Shown: in pieces, positions 5 to 16,412 of the stretch
Numbering within the stretch: position 1 is the stretch's first letter
Layout of the letters: every line of letters starts with the position of its first letter
Origin: Promethearchaeota archaeon
GTDB taxonomy: Archaea > Asgardarchaeota > Lokiarchaeia > Sigyniarchaeales > SOKP01
Length of the DNA stretch: 21,955 nt
Assembly (NCBI GenBank): GCA_004524535.1
Contig: SDNY01000058.1
Span: 1-21,955, forward strand
Reading direction: 5' to 3'
The notes under the pieces: generated by a model
Seen by the model: only the letters and a program-made list of their open reading frames with translations
Databases searched by the model: none
Told to the model about the DNA's origin: nothing
Made by a program: the position numbers and the translations under genes

Positions 5-143
5 TCAAAAATTTTGTTTTCTTTTCATTTTACTGCTTTTTTTAATTAGAATTGACGAAATTATACAAAGCACACAAATTAATAAGTGTATTTCATATCC
101 AGGAATTTCCATGTTTGGCTCATCATCATCGTCATCATCATCA
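5..143 (-). CDS. C-terminal fragment of a cell-surface protein with a Loki-CTERM/PGF-CTERM-like sorting tail (5'-truncated)
   Basis: Reads ...SDDDDDDDEPNMEIPGYEIHLLICVLCIISSILIKKSSKMKRKQNF*: acidic linker, IPGY motif, hydrophobic helix, basic tail. Beyond ~144 the frame is just the antisense of the + strand gene, so the track ORF 5..286 is chimeric. Confidence 0.7.
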
Positions 144-1110
144 GAAGGGTTTTTAAAATTCTTTCGTAAATCTATAGAATTTGTATTTGAATTAATTAAC
201 GGACGCCAAAAAATCTCTAATCTGACCGGTTTCAAGCGTGAGATTGTTACTGATTTAAAAAAGAGATTTGGATTTGCGGTTAACAACGAGTTCCATAGGG
301 ATTTTAAATTCTATTTAACAATCTTTATTTCTAGATATGTTTATGAGACGATGAAGTTACCCGAATTTGTTCCTATAATGGGTGGCGTTAATGAAGACCT
401 CACATTATCTCAAATAAATAAGTTAGCATATGGCCTAAAAAAGTCAATAGCTTATCAACAAATAAGACCAGATTGGTTAGAGGAGTTTAAAAAGGGGAGT
501 AAAAAAGAATTTATGAAAAAATACGATAAATTACAGCATGATATAAAGTCAGACCAAATTTATAGTGAAAGTTTTATGGATCATCTACGCTTTCTAATAA
601 AATCTGTTTTTAAACTTATTCATGGGAAATATAATGCATCGGATCTCCACGGATTTGAAAGTGCCATAGCAGAAGATTTGAAAGATAGGATCTTTTTAAA
701 ATTCGATATATCTCTAACAGGAACCTTCAAATTAAATCTGTTTATTATTCTCTCAAGATTTATTTTCTTTATTATACAATCATATGGGCAAAAATCACAC
801 TTAAAACCAAAAAATAATGAAATTGATGAATCTTTTACAGATAAAATAGTTAGTACCTTAAAAAGCAAAATATTAGCAAAGCGCATAAAAAGCGTATGGA
901 AAAAAAAGCTGTATAAAATAAATCAAAAAGATTTTGAAAAACAATATGAGAAATTTCAATTTAATTTAAAAACGGACCAGATTTATCGTGAAAGCTTTCT
1001 AAAATCTGTGAAAGGGATTATAATAACTGTTTTTAAATTGCTCTCCGGTAAAAATAAAAAATCAGACCTTTCAAAATTCGAGAGAGCAGTTATAATGGAT
1101 CTAAATAAGT
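144..1110 (+). repeat. Intragenic tandem repeat, 423-nt/141-aa period, about 2.3 copies
   Basis: EGFLKFF..VFELINGR (144), ESFMDHL..VFKLIHGK (567), ESFLKSV..VFKLLSGK (990); DQIY codons at 552 and 975. Confidence 0.8.
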
Positions 1111-2795
1111 TGAATATTACTGAAGAAATGAAAATTTTGTTTGAAGATAAAGGAGAAAATCATATTAGGATTAAAATCGAAAAAAGAGTAATTAGACATA
1201 TATATAAAACTCTGAAATCAAATTTTGGATATACAATTGAACAGATTGCTAATTTGATTAATATAAAACTAGAAACTTTTAGATCTGCTTTATATCGAGG
1301 TAATTCTCTTCCAAAGGTTGCATTTAAAAAGCTTGAAGCTCTTTATGGAAAAAAAATTCCTCATAAAAAAATAATTGGAAAAAATGAATTAATAATTCTA
1401 TTAAAAAATGCTGATTCTGCTGAACTGGTTGGAATATTATTAGGAGATGGTCATTTAAGCAATGATAAGACTGAAGTATCAGTAAGTCTTAATGGAGTAG
1501 ATGATCCAGAATATTTACGATATGTTATTAAACTTATAAGTCGCTTATTTAATATTGAAACTAAAAGTATTAAAACTGATACCTATGATGATAGTAAGTT
1601 ATCGCTAATTCGTCTTAACAAGCAAGCTTATCATAAAGCACTTATAGATTTAGGTTTAAAATCGGGAAATAAAGTTAAAAATCAAATAGATTCTCCTAAT
1701 TGGATTTTTCAAAATAAACATTTTATTATTAGATGTTTAAGAGGATTGACTGATACAGATGGAACAATTCAGATTAATAAAGAGTTTAGACGTTTTAGAA
1801 TAGTATTTCGAAGTGCATCAAAATCTTTGGTAAAGAGTTTTAAAAGAATGTGTAATATTTTAGGAATTCATACAGGTTCAGTATTACATACAAAAGTTTT
1901 TGATTCACGATATAATGAATATTATGATTCTTATCATGTTAGTATAAATTCAAAAAAAGATGTTAGAGAGTTTTTAAAGACAATTGAACCTAGAAAATTT
2001 AAATTTCGCAAAAAATATTATGGAACTTGGTTATTGATTCTCGAAAATCCTTTAATTTATAAGTTGTTTAAAAAAGAAATGATGCAAAAATTTCCAAAAG
2101 AGACGGATAGAATTTTTTCAAAAGAATTCTCAAAATTCCTATTTTCAAAAGCATCTGAATATCGTCTTGAATTAAGTAATTCCGAGTTTGATAGAGTGAT
2201 TGAAGAGGCCTTGACATATAAACGATGCATTTATTCGAAAGAATTAGGAAAATCTCTAGTAAAACTATATAAGAAACTAGGATCTCAAAATACTATCAAA
2301 GAATTTATTGAATTCTATGATACTTTAAATCCAATTCCAACTTCGAAAACAATAACAAAATTCATTAAGAAATACCTTTTTGAGAAAAAGAATATTGATT
2401 TTTATGAATGGAAAAAGCAATATACTTTTAATGGAGTAGTTTTAGATGCATCAAATAAAGTAATTGCCTCATTCCCTAATAAAATAAGAAGCATATTGAT
2501 TAAAAAAATATTCAAACTTTATTTAAATCAAGAGATAGATAAGACTTCCCAAATATTATATGAGTTATTAAAAAATACCAAAAATTCTTATCTAATCTTT
2601 CTTTTAGAAAACCAGAAATACAGTAAATCCTTTAGATTTTATTTAATAGAACTTATTAAGTTGGTTAAGATATTGATAGATATGATAAAGAAAGACCGAA
2701 TAAGAAGCGATCTATACCTTAAACAAAATTTTGGGATTTCATTTTCTACCTCAACTATATCATATATTAAAAAAGAAGTGAAAAGTCTTTTTTAG
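144..2795 (+). CDS. Large protein with 141-aa N-terminal repeats, HTH-like segment and two-motif LAGLIDADG endonuclease domain; 5'-truncated
   Basis: LAGLIDADG motifs AELVGILLGDG (~1419-1451) and LRGLTDTDG (~1737-1763); HTH-like YTIEQIANLINIKLETFRSALY before them. The track start MFGSSSSSSSS (111) is the antisense of the poly-Asp linker of the neighbouring fragment; the first repeat starts mid-unit at EGFLKFF (144). Confidence 0.8.
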   Translation, partial: EGFLKFFRKSIEFVFELINGRQKISNLTGFKREIVTDLKKRFGFAVNNEFHRDFKFYLTIFISRYVYETMKLPEFVPIMGGVNEDLTLSQINKLAYGLKKSIAYQQIRPDWLEEFKKGSKKEFMKKYDKLQHDIKSDQIYSESFMDHLRFLIKSVFKLIHGKYNASDLHGFESAIAEDLKDRIFLKFDISLTGTFKLNLFIILSRFIFFIIQSYGQKSHLKPKNNEIDESFTDKIVSTLKSKILAKRIKSVWKKKLYKINQKDFEKQYEKFQFNLKTDQIYRESFLKSVKGIIITVFKLLSGKNKKSDLSKFERAVIMDLNKLNITEEMKILFEDKGENHIRIKIEKRVIRHIYKTLKSNFGYTIEQIANLINIKLETFRSALYRGNSLPKVAFKKLEALYGKKIPHKKIIGKNELIILLKNADSAELVGILLGDGHLSNDKTEVSVSLNGVDDPEYLRYVIKLISRLFNIETKSIKTDTYDDSKLSLIRLNKQAYHKALIDLGLKSGNKVKNQIDSPNWIFQNKHFIIRCLRGLTDTDGTIQINKEFRRFRIVFRSASKSLVKSFKRMCNILGIHTGSVLHTKVFDSRYNEYYDSYHVSINSKKDVREFLKTIEPRKFKFRKKYYGTWLLILENPLIYKLFKKEMMQKFPKETDRIFSKEFSKFLFSKASEYRLELSNSEFDRVIEEALTYKRCIYSKELGKSLVKLYKKLGSQNTIKEFIEFYDTLNPIPTSKTITKFIKKYLFEKKNIDFYEWKKQYTFNGVVLDASNKVIASFPNKIRSILIKKIFKLYLNQEIDKTSQILYELLKNTKNSYLIFLLENQKYSKSFRFYLIELIKLVKILIDMIKKDRIRSDLYLKQNFGISFSTSTISYIKKEVKSLF

Positions 2796-2902: not shown

Positions 2903-3412
2903 ATGGATCGACAGTTAATGTCAAAAGTTTTATCTCAAATGAAAAAACATCTCGAAGAAAATAAAGAGATTGGCGACTTAAAGGTTGGTGCCTTACTAGC
3001 ATAAATTTTAGGTTTCCTAAAATTAATAGAATTAGGACATCAATTAGAAGCCATATTTTATTATTTAGGTCACGAATTAGGAACTATTCTAAGTGTTAAA
3101 CAAATTAAAGAAGTGAAAGATATTCCCGAAGAGTTGAAGAGTATAATTCCAAAGTATAATATTGGAGATATTATAATTACAGAGAGTACCAATGAAATTA
3201 TTACGCTAAAATTGAAGGGGCACTCTTCTAGTAAAGATCTAATTGGAAAAGGTATAAAAAGTGAAGGGAATTTTTGTTCTTTCGAAGCAGGGATGCTAGC
3301 TGGGATTGTTGAGCGAATGAGTAATGCTCACTGCTTTGCCCAAGAGGTAAATTGTGGTTTACAAACGCAAGAAGATGCATGCGAATTTATGATAGTATTT
3401 CAAAAAGATTAA
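2903..3412 (+). CDS. V4R-domain protein, predicted 159 aa after removal of a 30-nt intron (join 2903-3001, 3032-3412); otherwise a pseudogene with in-frame TAA
   Basis: ATG 2903 is in frame with track ORF 3113..3412; the only stop between them is TAA 3002-3004. C-terminal V4R pattern FCSFEAGMLAG...EVNC...CEF. Confidence 0.8.
3002..3031 (+). other. Candidate relaxed BHB mRNA intron (30 nt)
   Basis: Perfect 9-bp hairpin AATTTTAGG-TTT-CCTAAAATT (3004-3024); exon stem GUGCCUUA/UAGGACAU 7 of 8 pairs; central helix CUAG/AUAG 3 of 4; bulges CA|U and AA|U. Removal deletes the stop and keeps frame. Confidence 0.65.
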
Positions 3413-3525
3413 TTTTTTTTAATCATCCAACTTTTTTGCTATTATTTTTAGCTTTTTAAATACATATATATTATAGATTTTATATTATAACGATATATAA
3501 AATTAATCGAAAAATTTGATCAAAA

Positions 3526-4056
3526 ATGAGTAAAAGAACGTACGTTGTGAAAATTTGTTTATTAGGGGAAGCCAATGTTGGAAAAACTTCATTGGTCTAT
3601 AGATTTATTGAAAATAAATTTAGAGAAAACTATAAAAGTACGTTAGGGGTCAATCTTTTAAAGAAAGACCTTGATATCGAGGCTTTCGGTGAAGTTTCGG
3701 CTCAAATATGGGATCTTGGAGGTCAAGAATCCTTTAAAAGTTTAAGGAAATTATATTTAGAGGGAGCAAATGGCGGTCTTTTAATTTTCGATATGACAGT
3801 GAAGAAAACATTTGAGAAACTCAATGAATGGGTTCAAAGTTTTCAAGAAATCCGAGGAAAACAACCTTTATTGTTAATAGGAAATAAAATTGACTTAGAA
3901 AGTAAGATAAAAATTAAGGAAAACGAAGCTAAAAAATTTGCGCAGAAAAACAAAATGGCTTTCCTCCTGACGTCAGCAAAGACGGGCGATAACGTTGAAA
4001 CGGCATTTAAAAATTTGATCAAAACCATTTTGGAGGAAAATGTTGCTAAAAAATAG
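3526..4056 (+). CDS. Rab-like small GTPase
   Basis: G1 GEANVGKT, G3 WDLGGQ, G4 NKID, G5 TSAK; no C-terminal prenylation cysteines. Confidence 0.95.
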   Translation: MSKRTYVVKICLLGEANVGKTSLVYRFIENKFRENYKSTLGVNLLKKDLDIEAFGEVSAQIWDLGGQESFKSLRKLYLEGANGGLLIFDMTVKKTFEKLNEWVQSFQEIRGKQPLLLIGNKIDLESKIKIKENEAKKFAQKNKMAFLLTSAKTGDNVETAFKNLIKTILEENVAKK

Positions 4057-4261
4057 TTTTATATCTTATTTTTTCTCTTGTTTTTTTAAAAGAAAAATTT
4101 TTCATTTTAATAAACTCTTAAAATTTAATGTTTAAAGGTTTATTTATTTATTTTTAAATCAACCTTTATAAAGGAAGATTTATTTAAATAAAATTATAAA
4201 AATAAAACCATTTTTTTTCTAAATAGATTTCAATTCACAAATATCCACTTTAAATGTAAAA

Positions 4262-4909
4262 ATGTCAGATGAGGAATTTGATGAGGAAAACGATGAAGAA
4301 GAAGATCATGATTATGAATCTGATTTAGATTATAAAATAGAAAACGTTGTAGCAACTGTAAGTGTTGAACTTACAGAAAAGATAGACCTTAACCAGATTG
4401 CCCGGAAACATGCTGAAGTAGAATATAATCCGGAGAGATTTCCAGGATTGGTAATGCGGATCGAGAAGCCTCGAGCAACTATTCTTATTTTCTCTACTGG
4501 AAAAATGGTTGTAACAGGATTAAGAAAGGCTGTTGAGGCACCAAGAGTTGTTGAAAAAGTGGTTAAAAATATTAGAAAAGCTGGAATTAAACTATCTAAT
4601 CCGGAAATTACAATTCAAAATATAGTAGCCTCAGGAGATCTTCACACAAATATCGACTTAAATATGGCGGCGATTGTAATGGAATATGCCATGTATGAAC
4701 CAGAAGTTTTCCCCGGTTTAATTTATCGAATGCAAGATCCTAAGACTGTCTTTTTAATTTTTAGTACGGGTCGTATTGTTTGCACAGGTGCTAAAAAAAA
4801 GGAAATTGTAAAGGAGGCGGTTTTAAAACTAAATCAACAAGTGCGTGAATTAGGTGTCGCTAAAAAAGATATTTCTGAATCTGAATATCAAGATATAACA
4901 TTTATCTAA
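4262..4909 (+). CDS. tbp: TATA-box-binding protein
   Basis: Two TBP repeats (IENVVAT..YNPERFPGLV..LIFSTGKMVVTG; IQNIVAS..YEPEVFPGLI..LIFSTGRIVCTG) with an acidic N-terminus. Confidence 0.97.
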   Translation: MSDEEFDEENDEEEDHDYESDLDYKIENVVATVSVELTEKIDLNQIARKHAEVEYNPERFPGLVMRIEKPRATILIFSTGKMVVTGLRKAVEAPRVVEKVVKNIRKAGIKLSNPEITIQNIVASGDLHTNIDLNMAAIVMEYAMYEPEVFPGLIYRMQDPKTVFLIFSTGRIVCTGAKKKEIVKEAVLKLNQQVRELGVAKKDISESEYQDITFI

Positions 4910-4937
4910 TTATTTTAAAATAATTAGGATTGTTTCC

Positions 4938-5228
4938 TTATTTCTTAAATGAGCTATATCCTTTCCTATAGATCACATTTTGAAATTCTTTGAGAACGGT
5001 CTTATTAACTATTCCTTCAATATTATTGGTATAAAGGAGAGCTAATTCTCCTGAGATTTTATCTTTAAAACCAGCTATCTCAAAATGTTTTAATTTTTTA
5101 GAGCAAGAAATGTATATCGAATCATTTTGATTGTCATAATTTAACTCTGATTCGCAGATTGGACAATGATTGTCATCTATAGAGTGAATACTTTGCAATA
5201 ATTGATTAATTTCAAAATAATATAACAT
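4938..5228 (-). CDS. Small hypothetical protein with putative zinc ribbon
   Basis: CPIC...C...H motif. ATG 5228 (MLYYFE) is more plausible than the track's TTG 5300, which overlaps the acylphosphatase stop. Confidence 0.6.
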   Translation of the reverse strand: MLYYFEINQLLQSIHSIDDNHCPICESELNYDNQNDSIYISCSKKLKHFEIAGFKDKISGELALLYTNNIEGIVNKTVLKEFQNVIYRKGYSSFKK

Positions 5229-5296
5229 AATAAATGAAATTTCAAAATCCTTAAAGAAAATGAGTAATATATGAATAACATTTATTTTTTCTGGAG

Positions 5297-5569
5297 TCAA
5301 AAAGTATAGTCAAAGTTTGCAAACTGCTTTTGAGGATCTTTAAATTCGTAATCTGTTTTCTCAACTTGGGCATGTTTAGGACCTTTTTTGGCGAATTGTA
5401 GAAGTTCTTTTAATTTATCTTCAGGTCCCTCTGCTTCAATATATACTGATCCATCTGGCATATTTTTAACGTAGCCAGTGAGACCTAATTTACGAGCAAC
5501 TTTTCGTGTAGTATAACGGAAAAACACACCTTGTACTAATCCAAATACATTAATAATAATGCGCTTCAT
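5297..5569 (-). CDS. acyP: Acylphosphatase
   Basis: VFGLVQGVFFR, GLTGYVKNMPDGSV, GP..AQV signature motifs. Confidence 0.95.
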   Translation of the reverse strand: MKRIIINVFGLVQGVFFRYTTRKVARKLGLTGYVKNMPDGSVYIEAEGPEDKLKELLQFAKKGPKHAQVEKTDYEFKDPQKQFANFDYTF

Positions 5570-5596
5570 ATTGGGAATCTAATTTAATACTATTTA

Positions 5597-6730
5597 TTAT
5601 TTATTCCGTAAATTCTTCATAATTTTAATATTATCATCTAATTCTTCTTTAGTTATTTTTGGATGTATGTCCAACGCAAAAATTTCTCGGGTTACTTTTT
5701 CTACAACAGGTAGATTAAGCTTAGTATAATCAATTTCTTTTCCATAAAAGGGACATGACCATGGGCAACCCTTTGGATATGCTACTTTTTGTTGAAATAA
5801 TTTTGTTTGATATAACGGAACCGGATAAAGAACTTTGCTTTTAGGAAATTTTTCGATAAATTCTTCCTTGTTTAATCCAATTATTTCAGGATGAATTCTC
5901 CCAATCCAGTAATTAAATGCAGGTTCACAGTATTTTGGAACATAAGGAGGATCAATTCCTTTCAAATCTTTAACTTTATCTGTTAAATATTTGGCATTCT
6001 CATTTCTAATTTTTACATATCGATCTAATTTCTTTAATTGAATCCTCCCGATAGCTCCCTGAATTTCAGTCATCCGATAATTCCACCCTAGACGATTATA
6101 TACATACCAAGATGGTTCTCCATGATGCCTGATTAATCTACACTGCTCTGCTAATTTACTATTATTAGTAGTAATCATTCCTCCTTCTCCCGTAGTCATA
6201 TTTTTTGAAGGATAAAAACTAAATGCGCCCAAATCTCCAATTGATCCCACTTTTTTACCTTTATATTTTGCTCCGTGAGCTTGACAAGCATCTTCAATTA
6301 TATATAAATTATTATCTGCAGCAATGTCTAAGAGAGGATCCATATCAGCTGTTATTCCGGATAAATGAACCGGAATAATTGCCTTGGTTCTATCTGTAAT
6401 CTTTTTCTTTACAGAATCTGGATCTAACATATAGCTTTTATTATCTATATCAGCAAATATTGGAATTGCATTGTTTTGCAGAATTGAGCTGGCAGTCGCT
6501 ATAAATGTAAAAGGAGGGACAATTATCTCATCACCTGGGCCAATCTCTAGCGCTGCAATAGCAATATGGAGGGCTGCAGTTCCTGAATTAACCCCTATAG
6601 CATGTTTTACTCCAATATAATTTGCGAATTCCCTTTCAAAATTTTTAACAACCTCTCCTGCTAATAATGTTAGCATTTGAGATTCTATTACTTTAATAAC
6701 TTCCTTTTGTTCTTCTTCGGTAAGATTCAT
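5597..6730 (-). CDS. DegT/DnrJ/EryC1/StrS family PLP-dependent aminotransferase
   Basis: NSGTAALH, IIEDACQAHGA, FSFYPSKNMTTGEGG, GWNYRMTEIQ motifs. Confidence 0.95.
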   Translation of the reverse strand: MNLTEEEQKEVIKVIESQMLTLLAGEVVKNFEREFANYIGVKHAIGVNSGTAALHIAIAALEIGPGDEIIVPPFTFIATASSILQNNAIPIFADIDNKSYMLDPDSVKKKITDRTKAIIPVHLSGITADMDPLLDIAADNNLYIIEDACQAHGAKYKGKKVGSIGDLGAFSFYPSKNMTTGEGGMITTNNSKLAEQCRLIRHHGEPSWYVYNRLGWNYRMTEIQGAIGRIQLKKLDRYVKIRNENAKYLTDKVKDLKGIDPPYVPKYCEPAFNYWIGRIHPEIIGLNKEEFIEKFPKSKVLYPVPLYQTKLFQQKVAYPKGCPWSCPFYGKEIDYTKLNLPVVEKVTREIFALDIHPKITKEELDDNIKIMKNLRNK

Positions 6731-6782
6731 TTTAAACTCAGAAATTCTAGTGGTTTTATGGTTTATTATAAAATTTATAAAT

Positions 6783-6819
6783 AAAAAAAAGAATAGACCT
6801 CTTAAGAATGTGCTTATTC
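6783..6819 (-). terminator. Putative terminator: weak hairpin followed by U8 tract
   Basis: Minus strand GAAUA...UAUUC then UUUUUUUU, starting ~20 nt after the stop of 6840..7475. Confidence 0.4.
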
Positions 6820-6839
6820 AAAAATAGTGGATAGATTTT

Positions 6840-7475
6840 TTAAAATGATATATAATATTTATTATTGGCATTATTGTAGGCAACAATTTTATCTTTAATT
6901 AGAGTTTCAATAACGCTTTCTAACCAACGTTTACTAGTATTTACTTGTTTTTTAATATCTAAAAAACTTAGCTGATCATTTGTGGCTAATAAAAATAAGA
7001 TTCTACTTTTAACAGTTAAATGATTTGAATGTATTACTTTTTCAATTTTTTTTTCTAACTCATAAACTCTCATCTTCAGATCTGCAACATCATTGCTTAA
7101 TTTCATAATAACCTCATCTCTCGTTCTAAAAACATTTAAACTGAATTTAAATCTCCTTTCTAATTGTTCCTTTAATTCATTTTCATTTTCATATTTATAA
7201 AGATCTTTATTGAATTCTTCAAGAACAATTAAATAGTCGTTGCCTTCATCAAATTTATCTAATACTAAAACTATTACTACTTCTTTTTCGGAATTGTAAA
7301 AAGAAACGGAATTCCATTCTTTCTCTTCTGTTATAATATATGATTCCGTAAAATTATGCGCAATTTGAATATGTTGAACTACATTGTCAGGGATTTCTAA
7401 ATCTTCGGGAAATCTCATGTAAACTGTACCGCCTATTACTTGGTCCCATTTAATTATAAAAATCCCTTTGGGCAT
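6840..7475 (-). CDS. Hypothetical protein: longin/uDENN-like N-terminus, coiled coil, C-terminal winged helix
   Basis: GIFIIKWDQVIGG..FP start resembles longin/uDENN-type N-termini; heptad region LSNDVADLKMRVYELEKKIE; ILFLL..LSFLDIKK..LESVIETLIKDKIVAY wHTH-like end. Fold calls by eye. Confidence 0.6.
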   Translation of the reverse strand: MPKGIFIIKWDQVIGGTVYMRFPEDLEIPDNVVQHIQIAHNFTESYIITEEKEWNSVSFYNSEKEVVIVLVLDKFDEGNDYLIVLEEFNKDLYKYENENELKEQLERRFKFSLNVFRTRDEVIMKLSNDVADLKMRVYELEKKIEKVIHSNHLTVKSRILFLLATNDQLSFLDIKKQVNTSKRWLESVIETLIKDKIVAYNNANNKYYISF

Positions 7476-7644
7476 GGGTTTTTAAAAAAATTTTATTCGT
7501 TATCTATTGTGATTTATATTTACTTAATAAAGGTCTCAACTTATATTTTTAATTGAAATTTTTCAAGGTAAATCGTTTAATAAGAAAAATTATCTAAAAA
7601 AATATATATTACAAAATCGATTTTTTAATTAGAGAGGTTTCTTT

Positions 7645-7914
7645 ATGTCTGTTTATTTCGTCTATATTTTAGAAACAGTAGCAAGTAATGGTAGAAAAAG
7701 CTATTATACTGGATATACTAATAATCTTTTAAGAAGGTTAACGGAACATAGGCATGGACGAGGAGCGAGATATACTCGTGGCAAACAAAAAATTGAATTA
7801 AAATATTTCGAATCGTATACAGATAGAAAAGCCGCCATGAGACGTGAATTAGAAATTAAATCCTTTTCCAAGCAAAAGAAGTTAGAATTAATTAAAAACT
7901 TAAATAACAGCTGA
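7645..7914 (+). CDS. GIY-YIG nuclease (UPF0213/SLX1-like)
   Basis: YFVYIL...YYTGYTNNLLRRL.EH..GRGARYTR, AMRRELEIK. Confidence 0.92.
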   Translation: MSVYFVYILETVASNGRKSYYTGYTNNLLRRLTEHRHGRGARYTRGKQKIELKYFESYTDRKAAMRRELEIKSFSKQKKLELIKNLNNS

Positions 7915-7922
7915 TTTAATCG

Positions 7923-8738
7923 TTGGGAAAAAAAAATTTTTTAGTTTGTTTGGTTGGATTACCAGCATCGGGTAAATCTACTTTTGCTAACAAGTTGAAG
8001 GAATTATTAGAGAACAAATCTAATATTTTTAAGGTAAAAATTATAGATCCAGATGAGATAAGGGAAGATGTTGTTCCAGGTGAATTTAATCATAGCAAAG
8101 AACAAATAGTCCGTAGAAAAAACTTGGAATCAGTAAGAAAGATGCTAGAAGCAGGTTTTATTGCTATTAGCGATGATTTAAATTATTATACCAGTATGAG
8201 ACATGATTTAAAAAATATTGCAGATAATTTAGGTCTTAAATGTTTTATAATTCACATATCAACTCCACTTGAAACTTGCATAAAATGGAATGAAAATAGA
8301 GGGAAACCTATACCAAACAAAGTTATTATAAATATAGCTAAGAAATTTGATAATTTTGGTAAATACAACTGGGACATACCTCTTGCAAATTATGATCTCT
8401 CTCAATTGAAAGATTTAAATGAATCCGTAGAAAAATTAATTGATCTTTTTATTCGAAATCTAAAAATTTCAGAAGATTTAGCAAAAACTAATGAATTTAT
8501 TAAACAATCTTCAAATGTAAACAATGAAAAATTAGATAAAATTACGAGAAATATTACGGGAGATCTAATAAGAAATCCTAATTTTAGTTTATTAAAGAAT
8601 AAAATTATAAAATATCGAAAGATCTATGTGAAAAAGAATTTAAATACAGATTTAAGTGAGTCAGAAATTATAAAAAAATTTAATGAATATTTAGAAAAAA
8701 GTTTAAACATTAAAATTTCCTCAGATTTCTTTGAATAG
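7923..8738 (+). CDS. pstK: PSTK/KTI12-family P-loop kinase, likely O-phosphoseryl-tRNA(Sec) kinase
   Basis: GLPASGKST, ISDDLNYYTSMRHDL, WNENRGKPIP, KFD..KYNWD; TTG start. Confidence 0.75.
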   Translation: MGKKNFLVCLVGLPASGKSTFANKLKELLENKSNIFKVKIIDPDEIREDVVPGEFNHSKEQIVRRKNLESVRKMLEAGFIAISDDLNYYTSMRHDLKNIADNLGLKCFIIHISTPLETCIKWNENRGKPIPNKVIINIAKKFDNFGKYNWDIPLANYDLSQLKDLNESVEKLIDLFIRNLKISEDLAKTNEFIKQSSNVNNEKLDKITRNITGDLIRNPNFSLLKNKIIKYRKIYVKKNLNTDLSESEIIKKFNEYLEKSLNIKISSDFFE

Positions 8739-8835
8739 AGTATTATAAAAAATAAAGAAAAAGAAATTAAACCATAAATTACTTTATATACTTGAATTAA
8801 GATATTTTAATGTTATATAAGTATTTAAAATTTAA

Positions 8836-11130
<2,295 letters not shown>

Positions 11131-11147
11131 TAAATTTTTTTTATCCT

Positions 11148-12299
11148 CTACAATTCTTTAATAAAGCTTTCAATTCTATCCATAGCTAATTTAAGTTTTT
11201 CTAACTCGGTTGCGTAAGAGATTCTTAATAAAAAATCTGAGAAAGAGCCAAATATATTGCCAGGAACTATTGCTACTCCTTTTTCTTTAATTATTTTTTC
11301 TGAAAAAGCTTGACCTGTCATGTTAAATTTTTTAACTGAGGGCATTATATAAAACGCACCAAGAGGTTTGACTACATCAAAACCTATTTCATTTAGTCTA
11401 TTATACACAAACATACGTCTTTCGTCAAAACTCTTTAAAATATCATCAAAAAAACTATTGTCCATCTTTAAAGCTTCAATAAATCCATATTGAGCAGCGT
11501 GATTTGTCCCCGCAATTGTATACTGGAGATATTTTTCCATTAGGTCAATGATTTCCTTATTTGCTGCTACATAACCCAATCTAAAGCCCGTAGCGGAGTA
11601 TAACTTACTCATTGCGTTGAGCGTAATCGTTCTTTCAAACATACCTTTAAGAGAGGCTGGACTTGTATGCTTTAAACCTTCATAAATATAATTCTCATAT
11701 GCTTCATCACTTATCAAATATAAATCGTGTTTAAGAACTATACTAACAATCTCCTCTAATTCTTGCTTGCTTAATACATAACCAGTTGGATTATTCGGAG
11801 AATTAATAAGAATCGCCTTAGTTTTATTTGTAATTGACGCTTTTATATTCTCGATATTTGGACTAAAATCTAAATTTCGTTCAATTTCAACAATATTAAC
11901 CCCAAAAAAAGAACCGCAATAGAAATACGAAACAAAATTCGGTGATGATAGAATCAGCTCGTCACCAGGATTAAATATCGAGGCAAACGCAAGTGTAATA
12001 GCGTTAGAACCTCCATTACACAATATAATGTTATCTTTCCAGTTTAGTTTAATATTATTAATTGTTTCTAATTTCTTTTCAAGCAATTCTAATAGCTTTG
12101 GTACGCCTCTCGTTGGAGCATAGGTAGTGATGTTTTTCTTTAGTGCGGCAATATTACCTTGTATCGCTGGGAGAGGAGTAGGAAAATCTGGTTGACCAAT
12201 ACCAAGACTAATAACATCAGAGCGCCCAGCCGCAAGGTCAAATAATTCTCTAATTTTAGATTTTGGAGCTGCTATGACTTTTTGAGATAGTTCTTTCAT
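11148..12299 (-). CDS. Class I/II PLP-dependent (aspartate-type) aminotransferase
   Basis: LGIGQPDF, INSPNNPTG, ISDEAY, MSKLYSATGFRLGY. Confidence 0.95.
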   Translation of the reverse strand: MKELSQKVIAAPKSKIRELFDLAAGRSDVISLGIGQPDFPTPLPAIQGNIAALKKNITTYAPTRGVPKLLELLEKKLETINNIKLNWKDNIILCNGGSNAITLAFASIFNPGDELILSSPNFVSYFYCGSFFGVNIVEIERNLDFSPNIENIKASITNKTKAILINSPNNPTGYVLSKQELEEIVSIVLKHDLYLISDEAYENYIYEGLKHTSPASLKGMFERTITLNAMSKLYSATGFRLGYVAANKEIIDLMEKYLQYTIAGTNHAAQYGFIEALKMDNSFFDDILKSFDERRMFVYNRLNEIGFDVVKPLGAFYIMPSVKKFNMTGQAFSEKIIKEKGVAIVPGNIFGSFSDFLLRISYATELEKLKLAMDRIESFIKEL

Positions 12300-12392
12300 A
12301 ATAATATTTTTCTGAGTTAATTAATTTTAAAAGATTTTATCTTTATAGAATAAACTTATAAAAAGAGTTATTAATCAAAATATAAAATTAAA

Positions 12393-12970
12393 CTAAGCAG
12401 CTTCACCTAATTTTTTTAAAATATTATAAACCAAATTTTCAAATGCCTTTTCGACGTTTTCTCCGTACTTGGCACTTGTTTCAATGAAATCACTCGCATT
12501 AATTTCTCTCATAAAGCTATTGCCCTCTTCTGTTGAAACCACGCGTTGCTCCGTTAAATCAGTTTTGTTACCGATTAATACGTAGGTTCCTTCTTGTTTC
12601 ACATATTTCTCGAAATCCCTTAACCATTTAGAATTTACAGTTTCAAAAGTGGAACGTCTGGTTATATCATAAACTAATAACGCTCCAACACACCCTTGGA
12701 AATACATTGAACGAATTACATTATATTTCTCTTGTCCAGCGAGGTCCCACATAATTAATCTAACCTTTACGTTAATTTTATTAATATAAATATCTTTTCT
12801 AATGATATTAGCTCCCAGAGTGGGTTTATAATCCTCTTGGAAAGAATGTTCGATATATTGATTTATTAATGATGTCTTACCAACGGCCGCGTCCCCTAAA
12901 ACCACGATTAACTTCGCTAAGACGACGGGTCTTAAGCTTTAAAGACGAATTCTTTAATATCTTCAGACAT
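12393..12970 (-). CDS. Rab-like small GTPase, 182 aa after splicing (join 12970-12939, 12909-12393)
   Basis: Exon 1 MSEDIKEFVFK joins IVVLGDAAVGKTSL; WDLAGQE, NKTD, ETSAK. The track ORF (GTG 12905) lacks the start of beta-strand 1. Confidence 0.9.
12910..12938 (-). other. Canonical BHB mRNA intron (29 nt): AGCUUAAGACCCGUCGUCUUAGCGAAGUU
   Basis: Central helix CUUU(12944-41)/GAAG(12915-12); bulges AA|A and UU|A; intron stem GCU(U)AAGAC/GUCUUAGC. Cleavage after the second bulge nucleotide restores the frame and FK-IVVLGD. Confidence 0.88.
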
Positions 12971-13023
12971 TTAGGGATACCGCCTCATTCCTCTGCTCAT
13001 TTTTATCAACTCATATTTTACAT
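12971..13023 (-). other. Candidate 53-nt leader intron (relaxed BHB) ending at the Rab start codon; contains uORF MSRGMRRYP*
   Basis: Helix AGGG(13029-26)/CCCU(12976-73), bulges AA|A and AA|A, exon stem CAAAUA/UGUCUG 5 of 6; intron-side stem imperfect. Confidence 0.45.
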
Positions 13024-13072
13024 TTCCCTTATTTGTAATTATATTAATATTTTTATTATGCTTTATTTTTTT

Positions 13073-13609
13073 TTATTTCCATAATAATTTTAAAATATGC
13101 GAATTTTGCGTTTCTTTTTCGCTTACATAAGTAACATTTTTATTTTCTGGTAACGATTTCTTTAAGGATTGAACAAGAAACCCAAAGAATAGCTGGCAAG
13201 GAACTCCAATTTCATGACAAAAAACACAATTTTTAATTTCAACTGTAAAAGAATTTACTCCTTGATCTATAATTTGTACATCCCAATCTGTTTTTATTAA
13301 CTCGGTAATTTCTTCTACTATATCTTGAAAACTTTTACCATAAGGATACAAGTATATAGCAAGTTTCATGCCGAGATTATATAAGAGCTTATAACATCCA
13401 TATAGCAAAGAATTTTGAGCTATGATTAATTTCTTAAAAGTAAAAAAATCTATAGTCCCATTTGGATCAACTTCTCTAGCATCCTTTAAATCTAACATTT
13501 CAGCTTCTTTTAAAACAGATTTCATTCCATCGTAATCAAGGATATCTAAATAAGCTTGTAATAGCGCCGTAACGACCTTGTTTTTTACTTCCTCGTTATA
13601 TTCTCCTAT
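13073..13609 (-). CDS. V4R-like domain protein; probable start upstream of the track's ATG 13525
   Basis: CVFC..GVPCQLFFGFL V4R-type motif. Frame stays open and protein-like (NKVVTALLQAYLDILDYDG) to 13615; ATA 13609 lies 6 nt after an SD-like GGTGA. Start uncertain. Confidence 0.7.
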   Translation of the reverse strand: MGEYNEEVKNKVVTALLQAYLDILDYDGMKSVLKEAEMLDLKDAREVDPNGTIDFFTFKKLIIAQNSLLYGCYKLLYNLGMKLAIYLYPYGKSFQDIVEEITELIKTDWDVQIIDQGVNSFTVEIKNCVFCHEIGVPCQLFFGFLVQSLKKSLPENKNVTYVSEKETQNSHILKLLWK

Positions 13610-13637
13610 TACTATTCACCAATTGTTTAAATTTTAT

Positions 13638-13669
13638 TTAACATCATTTATTACTTAGAATGATATTAA
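13638..13669. promoter_or_regulatory. Intergenic inverted repeat (11-bp arms, 10-nt spacer)
   Basis: ttaacatcatt (13638-48) / aatgatattaa (13659-69), one mismatch (G:U on the minus strand). Function unknown. Confidence 0.35.
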
Positions 13670-13690
13670 TTTATTTTAATCTAAACTTAC

Positions 13691-14224
13691 TTAATGGTCA
13701 CCTAAAATTTCATAAACTAAATTTAAAAACGCTTTTTCAACATTGTTTCCTTTCTTAGCACTTGTTTCTATGAATTCAATAGCGTTAATTCGTTTTGCCA
13801 TCTCTTTAGAATCTTCTTTAAAGACATATCGTTGATCTTCCAAATCGTTCTTGTTTCCAATTAATATAAGTGAGCCTGTTTTTTCAACATATTTCTTGTA
13901 ATCTGTTAACCACTTAATCTCTATATTTTCAAAGGAAGAATATCTAGTGATGTCATAGACTAATAACGCTCCCAAACAACCTTCGTAATAAGCGCCCCTA
14001 GTTATTTCATATTGTTCTTGGCCGGCGATATCCCAGAGGATTAGTCGGGCATTGGCATTAATTTGCTCGAGTTCAATATTTTTCATAACGATATTTACTC
14101 CTAATGTCGCTCGATAATCTTCTTTAAAAGAAGCTGAAACAAATTGATTAACTAAAGAGGTCTTACCAACTCCAGCATCTCCCAATACGGCCAGCTTCAA
14201 AACATATTGTCCTTGTTTAGACAT
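13691..14224 (-). CDS. Rab-like small GTPase (intron-less paralog of 12393-12970)
   Basis: YVLKLAVLGDAGVGKT, WDIAGQE, NKND, ETSAK; shares GALLVYDITR and NVEKAF.NLVY with the neighbour. Confidence 0.95.
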   Translation of the reverse strand: MSKQGQYVLKLAVLGDAGVGKTSLVNQFVSASFKEDYRATLGVNIVMKNIELEQINANARLILWDIAGQEQYEITRGAYYEGCLGALLVYDITRYSSFENIEIKWLTDYKKYVEKTGSLILIGNKNDLEDQRYVFKEDSKEMAKRINAIEFIETSAKKGNNVEKAFLNLVYEILGDH

Positions 14225-14239
14225 TTTATCTTCCTTTTT

Positions 14240-14668
14240 TTATAATTCTAATAATGATAAATTAAAAGTTGATTCATTAACCCGGTTTAATTTTTGATTA
14301 ATTTCGTAAATAAAAACTTCTGCAGTAACAGAGATTATGCTCGGTTGACTTAAATGACCTCCAATAAGATTATAATCACCTTTTCCAACTGAAATATGAA
14401 TGTGAATTATTGGATCTCCGTCCTTATAAGAGATGTTTCCCATGCAGGATATGAGTTCTACATTTTCTTCAAAAGTTTTAAATTTATATTCTTTTGTATT
14501 AAGATCAAAATAGCCTATCGTAAATTTTTTAAAGGCTCCAATAACATTTATTAATCCGCCTTTTATATCATAATTTTTAACAAGAACTTTTATTGCATCG
14601 ATTAAATCCTCATCAGGCATTACTCTTGCAACAATAACCCTTCCAATATTCGTTTCAATACTTTTCAT
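14240..14668 (-). CDS. PPC/DUF296 domain protein
   Basis: ELISCMGNIS, IHIHISVG, IGGHL, TAEV motifs. Confidence 0.9.
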   Translation of the reverse strand: MKSIETNIGRVIVARVMPDEDLIDAIKVLVKNYDIKGGLINVIGAFKKFTIGYFDLNTKEYKFKTFEENVELISCMGNISYKDGDPIIHIHISVGKGDYNLIGGHLSQPSIISVTAEVFIYEINQKLNRVNESTFNLSLLEL

Positions 14669-15226
14669 TTTTGTAATTGGATCTACTAAAGAAATATTTC
14701 AAGGATGACCAAAAAGATCTATGAAATTCTTTAATTTCTTCGTTTTTTATATTTTTTTTATAATTTTACTTTTATTTATAGATTTTGTTATTTATATGAT
14801 AATATGAATTGTTTTTATTATTTTCTACCAGTGCAAAACAATTAATTACTCTGATTTATTTATAATTTATAATTAATGAATATGCAATAATTTATTTATG
14901 AGCGAAAAAGTCACGATTTCTGGAGTGGAATTGGAAGTTAATAATCATCTGAATTATCGTTATGGAATGATCAGAGAAAAATCTTGATGGGTTCTAAATA
15001 AAAAAAATACCGAACAGAAATGTATCAAATTTTCTTTTTTTCCAATAAATTTTTTTCAAATAATATATTTGTCTATTGTGTAACTTATACCACGAAATTT
15101 TTGCCTTTAAAAAGTATGTGAGAAAATTAACATTTTAAAGACACAGTAAATTTTGAGGGAGATTAAATTTAAATTTCTGAATTCTGAATTATATCATAGA
15201 GAAATAGAAAGTTTGTTTTAAAAAAG

Positions 15227-16412
15227 ATGAAAGAATTCAAAGTAAATGAACATATTGTTCTGCGATTAGAGGATAAAAAGACTAACATCTATGTGGACGG
15301 AGAGCCCTTTAATCAATGTAAGTATGTCTTGATGAGAAAATCGGTTGATGAATTGAAGGATGTACTTGAGGACATAGATTCGGTCGATGATTTAGCAAGA
15401 AATTTAGATCATTCATTAGAAAGAGTTAAACCTAAGCGAATAGACATACCTCCTAAGACTCGTTTTTGGGTACATTGTTCGAATATGCAGGTATGGGCAG
15501 AAAATCATTATGATACACGGCTCTTACATTCAAATTTAGCATTTCCCTTATTAAAGAAACTGGCAGAATTGGATGATTCTATAGCTAAAAGAGTTTTTAA
15601 AGCTGAAATAAAAAAAAGATTTTCCAGCGGGAAAGAAAATGTTATGGAATTTCTAAATATAAATGGGTATTTATCCTTTCTAACAGAAGAAGAGCTTAAA
15701 GAAGAGATCGCGAAACTAATTGAGAGAGGGAATCAAAGGACACTACTATTTCTGAAAGAGAATGAGTATTTAGATCATCTAAGTAATGAAGAAATAGTCT
15801 GTGCGTCATTAGTTCCGGAAGAAGCAGAAATCATTTTAGAATTAGAAAAATTAGTTAATGAAAAAATTGAATATATGAGTCTAGAGGAAGAACTTTCAAG
15901 TAATAAAGATAGGTATCCTTATTATAATGCTCGAGATCATAATGTAATTGGATTGGATTTATTTAACTGCAAGTTATTAGAAATTCCTGAAATAATAACA
16001 GGATTAAAAAGACTTAAAGAATTACATTTAGGAAGGAATTTTATCTCGACTATTCCTGAAATGATAAGAGAGTTAAAAAATCTTGAGATGTTAAATCTAT
16101 GGGACAATGAAATCCAAAACTTGCCTGATTGGCTTGATAAATTAAAATCATTGAAATACTTATATTTAAGTTCTAATCAAATAGAAGTACTTCCAAAATC
16201 AATAGGGAATATGAAATTATTAAAAGAATTAGATCTAGATACTAATAAATTAACCGCTATTCCAGAGACAATAAGAGATCTAAAAAATCTTGAGATGTTA
16301 GGGCTGACAAATAATAAAATCCAAACTTTACCAGAGTGGCTTAGTGAATTATTTTTTCAAAATCATACCTGATAATCTAAAAAAACTAAAATCAATCTAT
16401 TTACATATGTAA
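15227..16412 (+). CDS. Leucine-rich repeat protein with Lokiarchaeia-type N-terminal domain; 385 aa if a 28-nt intron is removed (join 15227-16346, 16375-16412), else 381 aa ending at 16372
   Basis: EFKVNE..L.LE..KT.IYV.G..F.QCK and FW.HCSN.Q.W.E..YDTRLLH.NLAFPLLK.L N-terminus; 23-aa LRRs with a 207-nt duplication (16064 vs 16271). Confidence 0.85.
16347..16374 (+). other. Candidate relaxed BHB mRNA intron (28 nt)
   Basis: Helix UUAG(16341-44)/CUGA(16369-72), bulges UG|A and UA|A, internal hairpin AU.AUUUU/AAAAU.AU. Splicing gives LSDLKKLKSIYL, matching the earlier repeat LDKLKSLKYLYL. Confidence 0.65.

Follow-up and report, generated by a model that had tools for sequence, protein, structure and literature searches.

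Can protein-coding genes of an Asgard archaeon that are broken by a stop or a frameshift in the DNA be made whole again in the RNA, by removal of introns of the kind otherwise cut out of tRNA? The question is raised by a stretch of 21,955 nucleotides (nt) from a Promethearchaeota archaeon, hereafter the window. It constitutes contig C148 in an assembly of 198 contigs and 3.66 Mb, with ~30% G+C and a completeness rated at 99%, and the relatives of this genome have been deposited mostly as Promethearchaeota (Loki-type Asgard) metagenome-assembled genomes. The original prediction, made from the letters of the window alone, held that three of its genes, encoding a V4R-like protein, a Rab-family GTPase and a leucine-rich repeat (LRR) protein, each carry a hairpin insert bounded by a motif of the type known as bulge-helix-bulge (BHB). 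For the V4R and Rab genes we put the probability at roughly 85% that each carries a BHB intron of 29-30 nt which would be removed by the splicing endonuclease EndA and the ligase RtcB; the LRR candidate was rejected and is treated separately below.

Two interrupted genes in the window

The segments of the two genes are the following.

12939..12970, minus strand: exon 1 of the Rab/Ras-family GTPase gene (MSEDIKEFVFK, last codon split), homologous to the N-termini of orthologues and of two Rab paralogues in the window
12910..12938, minus strand: 29-nt canonical BHB mini-intron of the Rab gene, placed by its absence from 3/3 orthologues, the BHB parse and contig bridging
12393..12909, minus strand: exon 2 of the Rab gene (IVVLGDAAVGKT...), Pfam Ras, E = 1.7e-50
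2904..3001, plus strand: exon 1 of the V4R/DUF2507-like gene (MDRQ...GALLA), open from the ATG at 2904 and aligned to orthologue N-termini
3002..3031, plus strand: 30-nt BHB-type mini-intron of the V4R gene, opening with an in-frame TAA (3002-3004) and missing in 5/5 orthologues
3032..3412, plus strand: exon 2 of the V4R gene, 126 open codons, joined to exon 1 after excision

The geometry against which the inserts were read was calibrated on the canonical 37/38 intron of tRNA-Pro(TGG) of the same genome, found with ARAGORN, and can be written 5'-h-H(4)-NN↓N-h'...h'-H'(4)-NN↓N-h-3', with h denoting the outer helix between the exons, H/H' the central helix of 4 bp and h' the inner intron helix, where each 3-nt bulge lies 3' of its own central-helix strand, and where the cut (arrow) falls after the second nucleotide of the bulge. 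The description of the motif in the available part of PMC5829648 agrees with this geometry.

In the Rab gene the insert introduces a stop as well as a frameshift, and what can be read without splicing is MSEDIKEFVFKA followed by a stop, plus an open reading frame (ORF) that starts from GTG and is devoid of the beginning of the first strand. The 29 nt are missing in all three aligned orthologues, and the excision that these define (12938 down to 12910) coincides with a canonical BHB, in which the central helix is CTTT/GAAG (4 bp), the bulges are AA↓A and TT↓A, and the inner helix comprises 8 bp with one bulged T, stacked on both sides. Two registers of the insert are equivalent in product, and the spliced peptide, MSEDIKEFVF/KIVVLGDAAVGKT, is identical across the junction, with no gap, to that of the sister species (genome G005), the intron site (12939/12909) being located immediately before the P-loop VVLGDAAVGKT. 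A junction that had been guessed from paralogues, AAA G↓...↓TC GTG, has no BHB and was corrected by the alignment of orthologues.

The Rab insert also bears on the notion that the hairpins are spurious insertions produced by assembly or binning of a metagenome-assembled genome, a notion that draws on the fragmentation of the assembly into 198 contigs and on the fact that the best DNA sample may be the genome's own source sample. A contig that comes from an independent study (X4, record 31) however spans the insert with 0 gaps, and so does a contig of run X2 from another sample (record 14), the single gap of which lies elsewhere; the strains that these contigs represent are ~4% divergent. Since furthermore equivalent inserts occur in the elongation factor 2 (aEF-2) gene of 20 other genomes and each insert is complementary to its own exon, we regard an artefact as exceedingly improbable.

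The V4R gene, for which Pfam V4R and DUF2507 give weak matches in the downstream part, contains a 30-nt insert that is exactly missing in 5/5 aligned orthologues (G005, G002, G001, G018 and G007). Three registers are equivalent in product (3001-3030, 3002-3031 and 3003-3032), and in register 3002-3031 both cuts fall after the second nucleotide of 3-nt bulges, CA↓T and AA↓T. The central helix, CTAG/ATAG, has 3/4 pairs and a G.A mismatch, with 2996-2998 pairing to 3027-3029, while the inner helix is of 9 bp (3004-3012 with 3016-3024) and the outer exon-exon helix of 4 bp. Excision gives ...KVGALLA/LGHQLEAIFYYLGHEL, which equals the G005 peptide across the junction without a gap. In both genes, excision at the BHB cut sites thus reproduces the protein sequence of the orthologues exactly. 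The check by orthologue alignment that accompanied the original prediction has in this way come out in favour of both introns, at 5/5 and 3/3 related genomes lacking the insert.

In a contig of run X3, which derives from an independent study, the V4R gene has another 29-nt hairpin insert, distinct from that of the window and located at window position 3055/3056, 24 nt downstream of the window intron, which suggests that the intron position in this gene is polymorphic among strains. A blastn-short search of both window inserts with their flanks against the genome returned only the inserts themselves and chance matches of at most 20 nt, with no copies of a repeated element.

BHB introns require a splicing endonuclease and an RtcB ligase, and both genes are present in the genome. 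The window holds neither, but two EndA-family ORFs of 201 amino acids (aa) each on C100 and C84, which are diverged paralogues (PF01974, 107.9 and 70.7 bits), and one RtcB, uninterrupted and with no stops (PF01139, 561.3 bits), are found elsewhere, in support of the machinery that had been proposed. Asgard EndA is described in the available part of PMC5829648 as an (alpha-beta)2 type with broad specificity and an L1 insert, and the two putative subunits encoded here would fit that type; judged by eye, the His of the ...EHSPFIVHV... stretch is kept only in the C100 copy. In the mechanism that we propose, the 4-bp central helix would arise in the pre-mRNA by pairing between the last nucleotides of exon 1 and the 3' terminus of the intron, the remainder of the intron would fold as a hairpin of 8-9 bp, and the splice sites would come to lie in 3-nt bulges on opposite strands, where a two-subunit EndA would cut after the second nucleotide of each bulge and RtcB would then ligate the exons, restoring the reading frame.

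Inserts across the genome and its relatives

The original prediction went further in suggesting that this lineage may splice many of its mRNAs. For a comparison, 2.05 Mb of the sister species G005, which has ~80% DNA identity, was aligned to the whole genome, and alignment was obtained over 698 kb and then 498 kb (~1.2 Mb in total, a third of the genome). Extra sequence in this genome peaks at 27-33 nt, with 34 such gaps as against 7 for G005 (batch 1), and gene-disrupting inserts of 27-34 nt with verified junctions amount to 30 that are specific to this genome and 7 that are specific to G005. The 30 inserts are distributed over ~27 genes, several per gene being possible, and measure 30 nt in twelve cases, 29 and 31 nt in six each, 32 nt in four, and 33 and 34 nt once each, with phases 0, 1 and 2 represented by 13, 9 and 8 inserts. 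For every insert the boundary was placed where the protein spliced in silico best matched that of the other genome, and BHB was scored solely at registers giving the identical product. Two combinations were accepted, namely 4 bp in the central helix and no fewer than 4 bp in the inner one, or 3/4 pairs in the central helix and no fewer than 5 bp in the inner one. Scored in this manner, a sense-strand BHB is present in 23/30 inserts of this genome and 7/7 of G005, whereas over all 37 inserts it is present in 9/740 registers shifted by 7-16 nt and in 0/37 on the antisense strand. The boundaries, set independently by intron-less orthologues, coincide with the BHB cuts, and cuts after the second bulge nucleotide would restore the mature sequence. 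Two candidates, C36:1642 and C65:16418, were dropped when junction verification failed. Extrapolating roughly from 30 per 1.2 Mb aligned, the genome would carry ~90 lineage-specific mRNA introns, excluding those shared with G005. As a side observation, one thiolase-like gene of the sister species (G005:C6:91560-91810) is interrupted within 250 nt by mini-introns of 34, 34 and 29 nt, all three of which are missing from this genome.

It should also be mentioned that several observations speak against this reading. The V4R motif is relaxed: besides the central G.A mismatch, the inner helix has an A.A mismatch at its base, so that the 5' bulge is effectively a 5x2 internal loop. Among the 30 inserts, 7 fail the BHB criterion; in three of these the central helix is of 4 bp but the inner helix is weak, one is dubious and of low complexity (C26:6412, counted among the 30 as a miss; C38:361 is likewise low-complexity and dubious), and the remaining three, which have verified junctions, are without a recognisable central helix:

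C47:2055-2088 of this genome (G000): insert in PyrG
C32:3640-3669 of this genome: insert in the CdhC-like gene
C103:13980-14016 of this genome: second insert in ACR3

Splicing of these three, if it occurs, would mean that the enzyme takes a substrate other than a BHB; in the CdhC-like insert both junctions are located within one continuous predicted helix. Furthermore, the scan for BHB motifs at disruptions that had been recommended as a check, performed motif-first over the whole genome (205,848 permissive BHB candidates with an ORF-merge criterion), gave no enrichment at the true register over frame controls displaced by +/-1-2 nt (e.g. 8,379 versus 8,087-8,333), because chance merges of adjacent genes dominate, and the comparative approach was used in its place. 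Finally, for the L1 loop and the catalytic residues of EndA the sequences were read by eye, and cleavage and ligation in vivo are inferred from DNA.

Evidence of a different kind comes from aEF-2. The two window introns are seen only in this species, and covariation was examined in aEF-2 instead. When the intron-less aEF-2 of G005 was compared with 150 genomes of the class, 22 full-length or near matches showed in-frame stops together with ~30 extra nt, and three partial matches have stops as well. Comparison of the intron positions in 20 of the 22 matched genomes plus this genome revealed at least 5 distinct positions, within AH↓IDHGKT or close to it, and ahead of DEEQERGITI at two sites that are separated by six bases, with two introns in one genome. 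Position A is common to 15 genomes, in which the 4-bp central helix is invariant and the loop variable, and the 9-bp inner helix shows double changes from G-C to A-U and from U-A to A-U (2 compensatory pairs). At this position 95.9% of cells are paired as opposed to 27-49% with slid partners, and the covariation score was reached by 0/500 shuffles. The aEF-2 intron is therefore conserved in structure and not in sequence. With respect to the flanking exon, the Ser-Asp codons before the intron, which form the central helix, are TCAGAT in 15/15 intron-bearing genomes and, among the genomes listed, AGCGAC in G005 and G128, both of which are intron-less there, but TCAGAT is also found in the intron-less G073, G012 and G011; the intron may thus constrain synonymous codon choice in the exon.

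The identities of the interrupted genes, as read from G005 orthologues and motifs without a family search, bear on whether they are still genes at all. Hosts in information processing are RpoA1 (two introns), aEF-2, a GyrB-like protein, RNase HII, ELP3 and a tailed histone; metabolic hosts are CdhA, a CdhC-like protein, PyrG, ArgG, phosphofructokinase (PFK), NifU, a B12-binding mutase domain and an FAD oxidase (two introns); and others include MoxR (two introns), ACR3 (two introns), a TldD-like peptidase and a second small GTPase (split WD↓IGGQ). Of the two parts of the prediction on many mRNAs, the number stands, with at least 30 lineage-specific cases in the compared third of the genome, while the emphasis on eukaryotic-signature proteins does not, since most hosts are housekeeping or metabolic. 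That the inserts are lineage-specific, recent and absent from the sister species, and that 7/30 have no convincing BHB, would also be expected of pseudogenes or of genes inactivated by unspliced mobile palindromes. However, RpoA1, aEF-2, CdhA, PyrG, RNase HII and ELP3 each have a single locus by tblastn, and in a viable cell it is impossible for every one of them to be a pseudogene. Coding sequence on either side of the inserts is moreover intact and closely matches that of G005, the aEF-2 insert has been kept in 15 genomes with structure-preserving changes, and the window inserts have no second copy in the genome. Inactivation is in our view improbable, and the suggestion that many apparent pseudogenes of this lineage could be intact is supported.

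The inserts are not confined to protein genes. The tRNA-His(GTG) gene (G000:C179, ~1050-1250, minus strand) has, besides one intron common with G005, two extra inserts of ~30 nt that G005 lacks and that are of the same class and shape as the mRNA inserts; one follows the acceptor stem, the other is situated in the anticodon loop. Rfam (49.5 bits) and ARAGORN both confirm that the orthologue in G005 is a tRNA, whereas ARAGORN did not recognise the multiply interrupted gene of this genome, even after in-silico excision; with introns allowed it finds only 12 tRNA genes in the genome. For tRNA-His, the extra inserts are such that repair is possible only at the RNA level.

This is pertinent to a further explanation, namely that the mRNA stays unspliced and that ribosomes hop over the ~30-nt hairpins, by translational bypassing or recoding as in phage T4 gene 60 and the byps of Magnusiomyces mitochondria. 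The inserts are indeed short hairpins within the size range of byps, and many of them begin with or soon hold a stop, such as the TAA that comes first in V4R. Nevertheless, if take-off and landing triplets were identical there should be 4 or more equivalent registers, which only 8/37 inserts have (Rab has 2 and V4R 3). The same class of insert is found in the tRNA-His gene, which is never translated, so that bypassing drops out as a general answer, and the strand-specific geometry corresponds exactly to a BHB, with stems that covary. We consider bypassing to be a poor candidate, and splicing by EndA and RtcB remains the explanation that we prefer; mRNAs of this Asgard archaeon very probably need splicing before translation, as far as can be judged from the genome sequences.

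The window introns probably belong to a large, fast-turning-over population of ~30-nt BHB introns in protein and tRNA genes of this genome and its relatives. Intron sites are often found inside conserved catalytic motifs, as in GHFG↓HIEL (RpoA1), AH↓IDHGKT and D↓DEEQERGITI (aEF-2), DEAG↓RGP (RNase HII), SGGL↓DTS (ArgG), GGG↓DCPGLN (PFK), GL↓DGHDRG (B12 domain), WD↓IGGQ (GTPase) and TNQ↓RET (a G005 kinase), a placement that is reminiscent of inteins and homing introns, although the verification step itself favours conserved flanks. It is tempting, if rather speculative, to think of an ongoing invasion of Loki-type protein genes by ~30-nt tRNA-type introns that turn over between sister species and prefer the most conserved catalytic motifs. 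If that were true, the placement would imply spread at the DNA level, either homing-like or recombination-driven, and the cells would have to hold ribosomes off unspliced mRNA, which would be a prokaryotic precedent for separating mRNA processing from translation.

Neighbouring genes and the rejected LRR candidate

The flagged region of the window further encodes, among others, TBP, CDC48, an aminotransferase and the LRR protein. Three tandem units (2904-4056, 12393-13525 and 13691-14668) each consist of a small accessory gene and a Ras/Rab-family GTPase gene, the accessory proteins being the V4R/DUF2507-like protein, a 150-aa protein and a PCC-domain protein, and introns are present in 2/3 of these units. 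Directly 5' of the V4R gene is an 894-aa ORF (111-2795, plus strand) with a LAGLIDADG_3 domain (E = 2.7e-10), which may be a homing endonuclease of the free-standing type. The window becomes syntenic with G005 and G002 only at position 2887, G005 carrying a GTPase gene and another gene there instead, and the ORF has two paralogues elsewhere in the genome (31-35%) and none that was found in 1.2 Mb of G005. A stand-alone 89-aa ORF with a GIY-YIG nuclease domain (7645-7914, plus strand; E = 7.3e-15) adjoins a KTI12-like gene.

The LRR gene and the intron that had been proposed for it are located as follows.

15227..16372, plus strand: LRR gene (Pfam LRR_8), its end a frameshifted variant of the paralogue C-terminus according to paralogue alignment
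16352..16379, plus strand: proposed 28-nt LRR intron, rejected, homologous to coding sequence of the C136 paralogue

This intron, together with its two equivalent registers, had to be given up, since the stretch aligns base for base with coding sequence of the paralogue on contig C136 (...NNYIKIINDDLKKLKSAYL...) and since a BHB is absent, all three registers having an inner helix of 0-2 bp and a central helix of at most 3/4 pairs. The window copy has instead, relative to the paralogue, a 32-nt gap just upstream of the proposed insert, which shifts the frame, and in a region that is repeated in the genome it is quite likely that the gene simply ends early through this deletion or frameshift, being an intron-less gene that is either a C-terminal variant or in decay. 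The removal of the 28 nt does yield an LRR-like continuation (LPEWLSEL/KKLKSIYLHM), but such a continuation comes easily by chance because the protein is a periodic repeat protein.

Comparison with known systems

The inserts matter in several respects. Genes recorded in Asgard metagenome-assembled genomes as pseudogenes or as split may be intact, which affects both metabolic reconstructions and completeness estimates. Sister species that differ at 37 positions per 1.2 Mb aligned furthermore constitute a natural system for intron gain and loss on a short time scale. Archaeal mRNA splicing by the tRNA machinery is known essentially from cbf5 only, and here the group closest to eukaryotes appears to need mRNA splicing for dozens of genes, including those of RNA polymerase, elongation factor 2 and CTP synthase, which poses a question for the origin of eukaryotes, namely how a cell without a nucleus avoids translating unspliced messages.

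In eukaryotes, the HAC1/XBP1 mRNA is spliced by IRE1 cleavage and, in metazoa, by RtcB ligation. The role of RtcB in this unconventional splicing is mentioned in the available part of PMC8718801. The likeness consists in a short mRNA intron that is cut in stem-loops and in a ligation of RtcB type that changes the reading frame, whereas the endonuclease and the motif are different and there is one regulated target, as opposed to the many genes and apparently constitutive splicing proposed here.

Non-canonical or relaxed BHB substrates (HBh', hBH and BHL) of (alpha-beta)2 and epsilon2 EndA are described in the available part of PMC5829648, and the present genome resembles these systems in having two EndA paralogues and several inserts with a relaxed motif, for instance with the central helix mismatched or the 5' bulge enlarged. 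It differs in that the putative substrates are mRNAs.

The tRNA introns of Asgard archaea have, according to the available text of a preprint of October 2026 (bioRxiv 10.64898/2026.10.13.758758), been gained recently and repeatedly, with canonical BHB boundaries far above null models and by an arrival route that is unknown. Lineage, recent and repeated gains and canonical BHB boundaries well beyond chance are shared with the introns described here, and tRNA-His behaves alike. The preprint is however concerned with tRNA genes only, the available text containing the word 'mRNA' 0 times, and has its focus on Freyr-, Jordi- and Atabeyarchaeaceae, in contrast to the Loki-type mRNAs of the present work.

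A close counterpart is the crenarchaeal cbf5 pre-mRNA with its BHB intron (Watanabe 2002; Yoshinari 2006; Yokobori 2009, PMC2738675), and these are the three papers that PMC5829648 and PMC12397907 cite for pre-mRNA in their available parts. Indeed, in a literature search that covered accessible text, with subscription journals and supplements outside it, only the cbf5 papers were found to be cited for archaeal pre-mRNA BHB introns, also in Nucleic Acids Research (NAR) papers of 2018 and 2025. As far as the available accounts of cbf5 go, the two systems have in common a tRNA-type BHB intron within a protein gene, which is cut by a hetero-oligomeric EndA, joined by a ligase, and gained or lost among relatives. 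The difference is one of extent, since cbf5 is one gene of thermophilic Crenarchaeota, whereas at least 30 lineage-specific introns in ~27 genes are found here in a third of one Asgard genome, with a uniform length of 29-34 nt, a rapid turnover between sister species, and several introns per gene in RpoA1, the FAD oxidase, MoxR and ACR3, which have two each.

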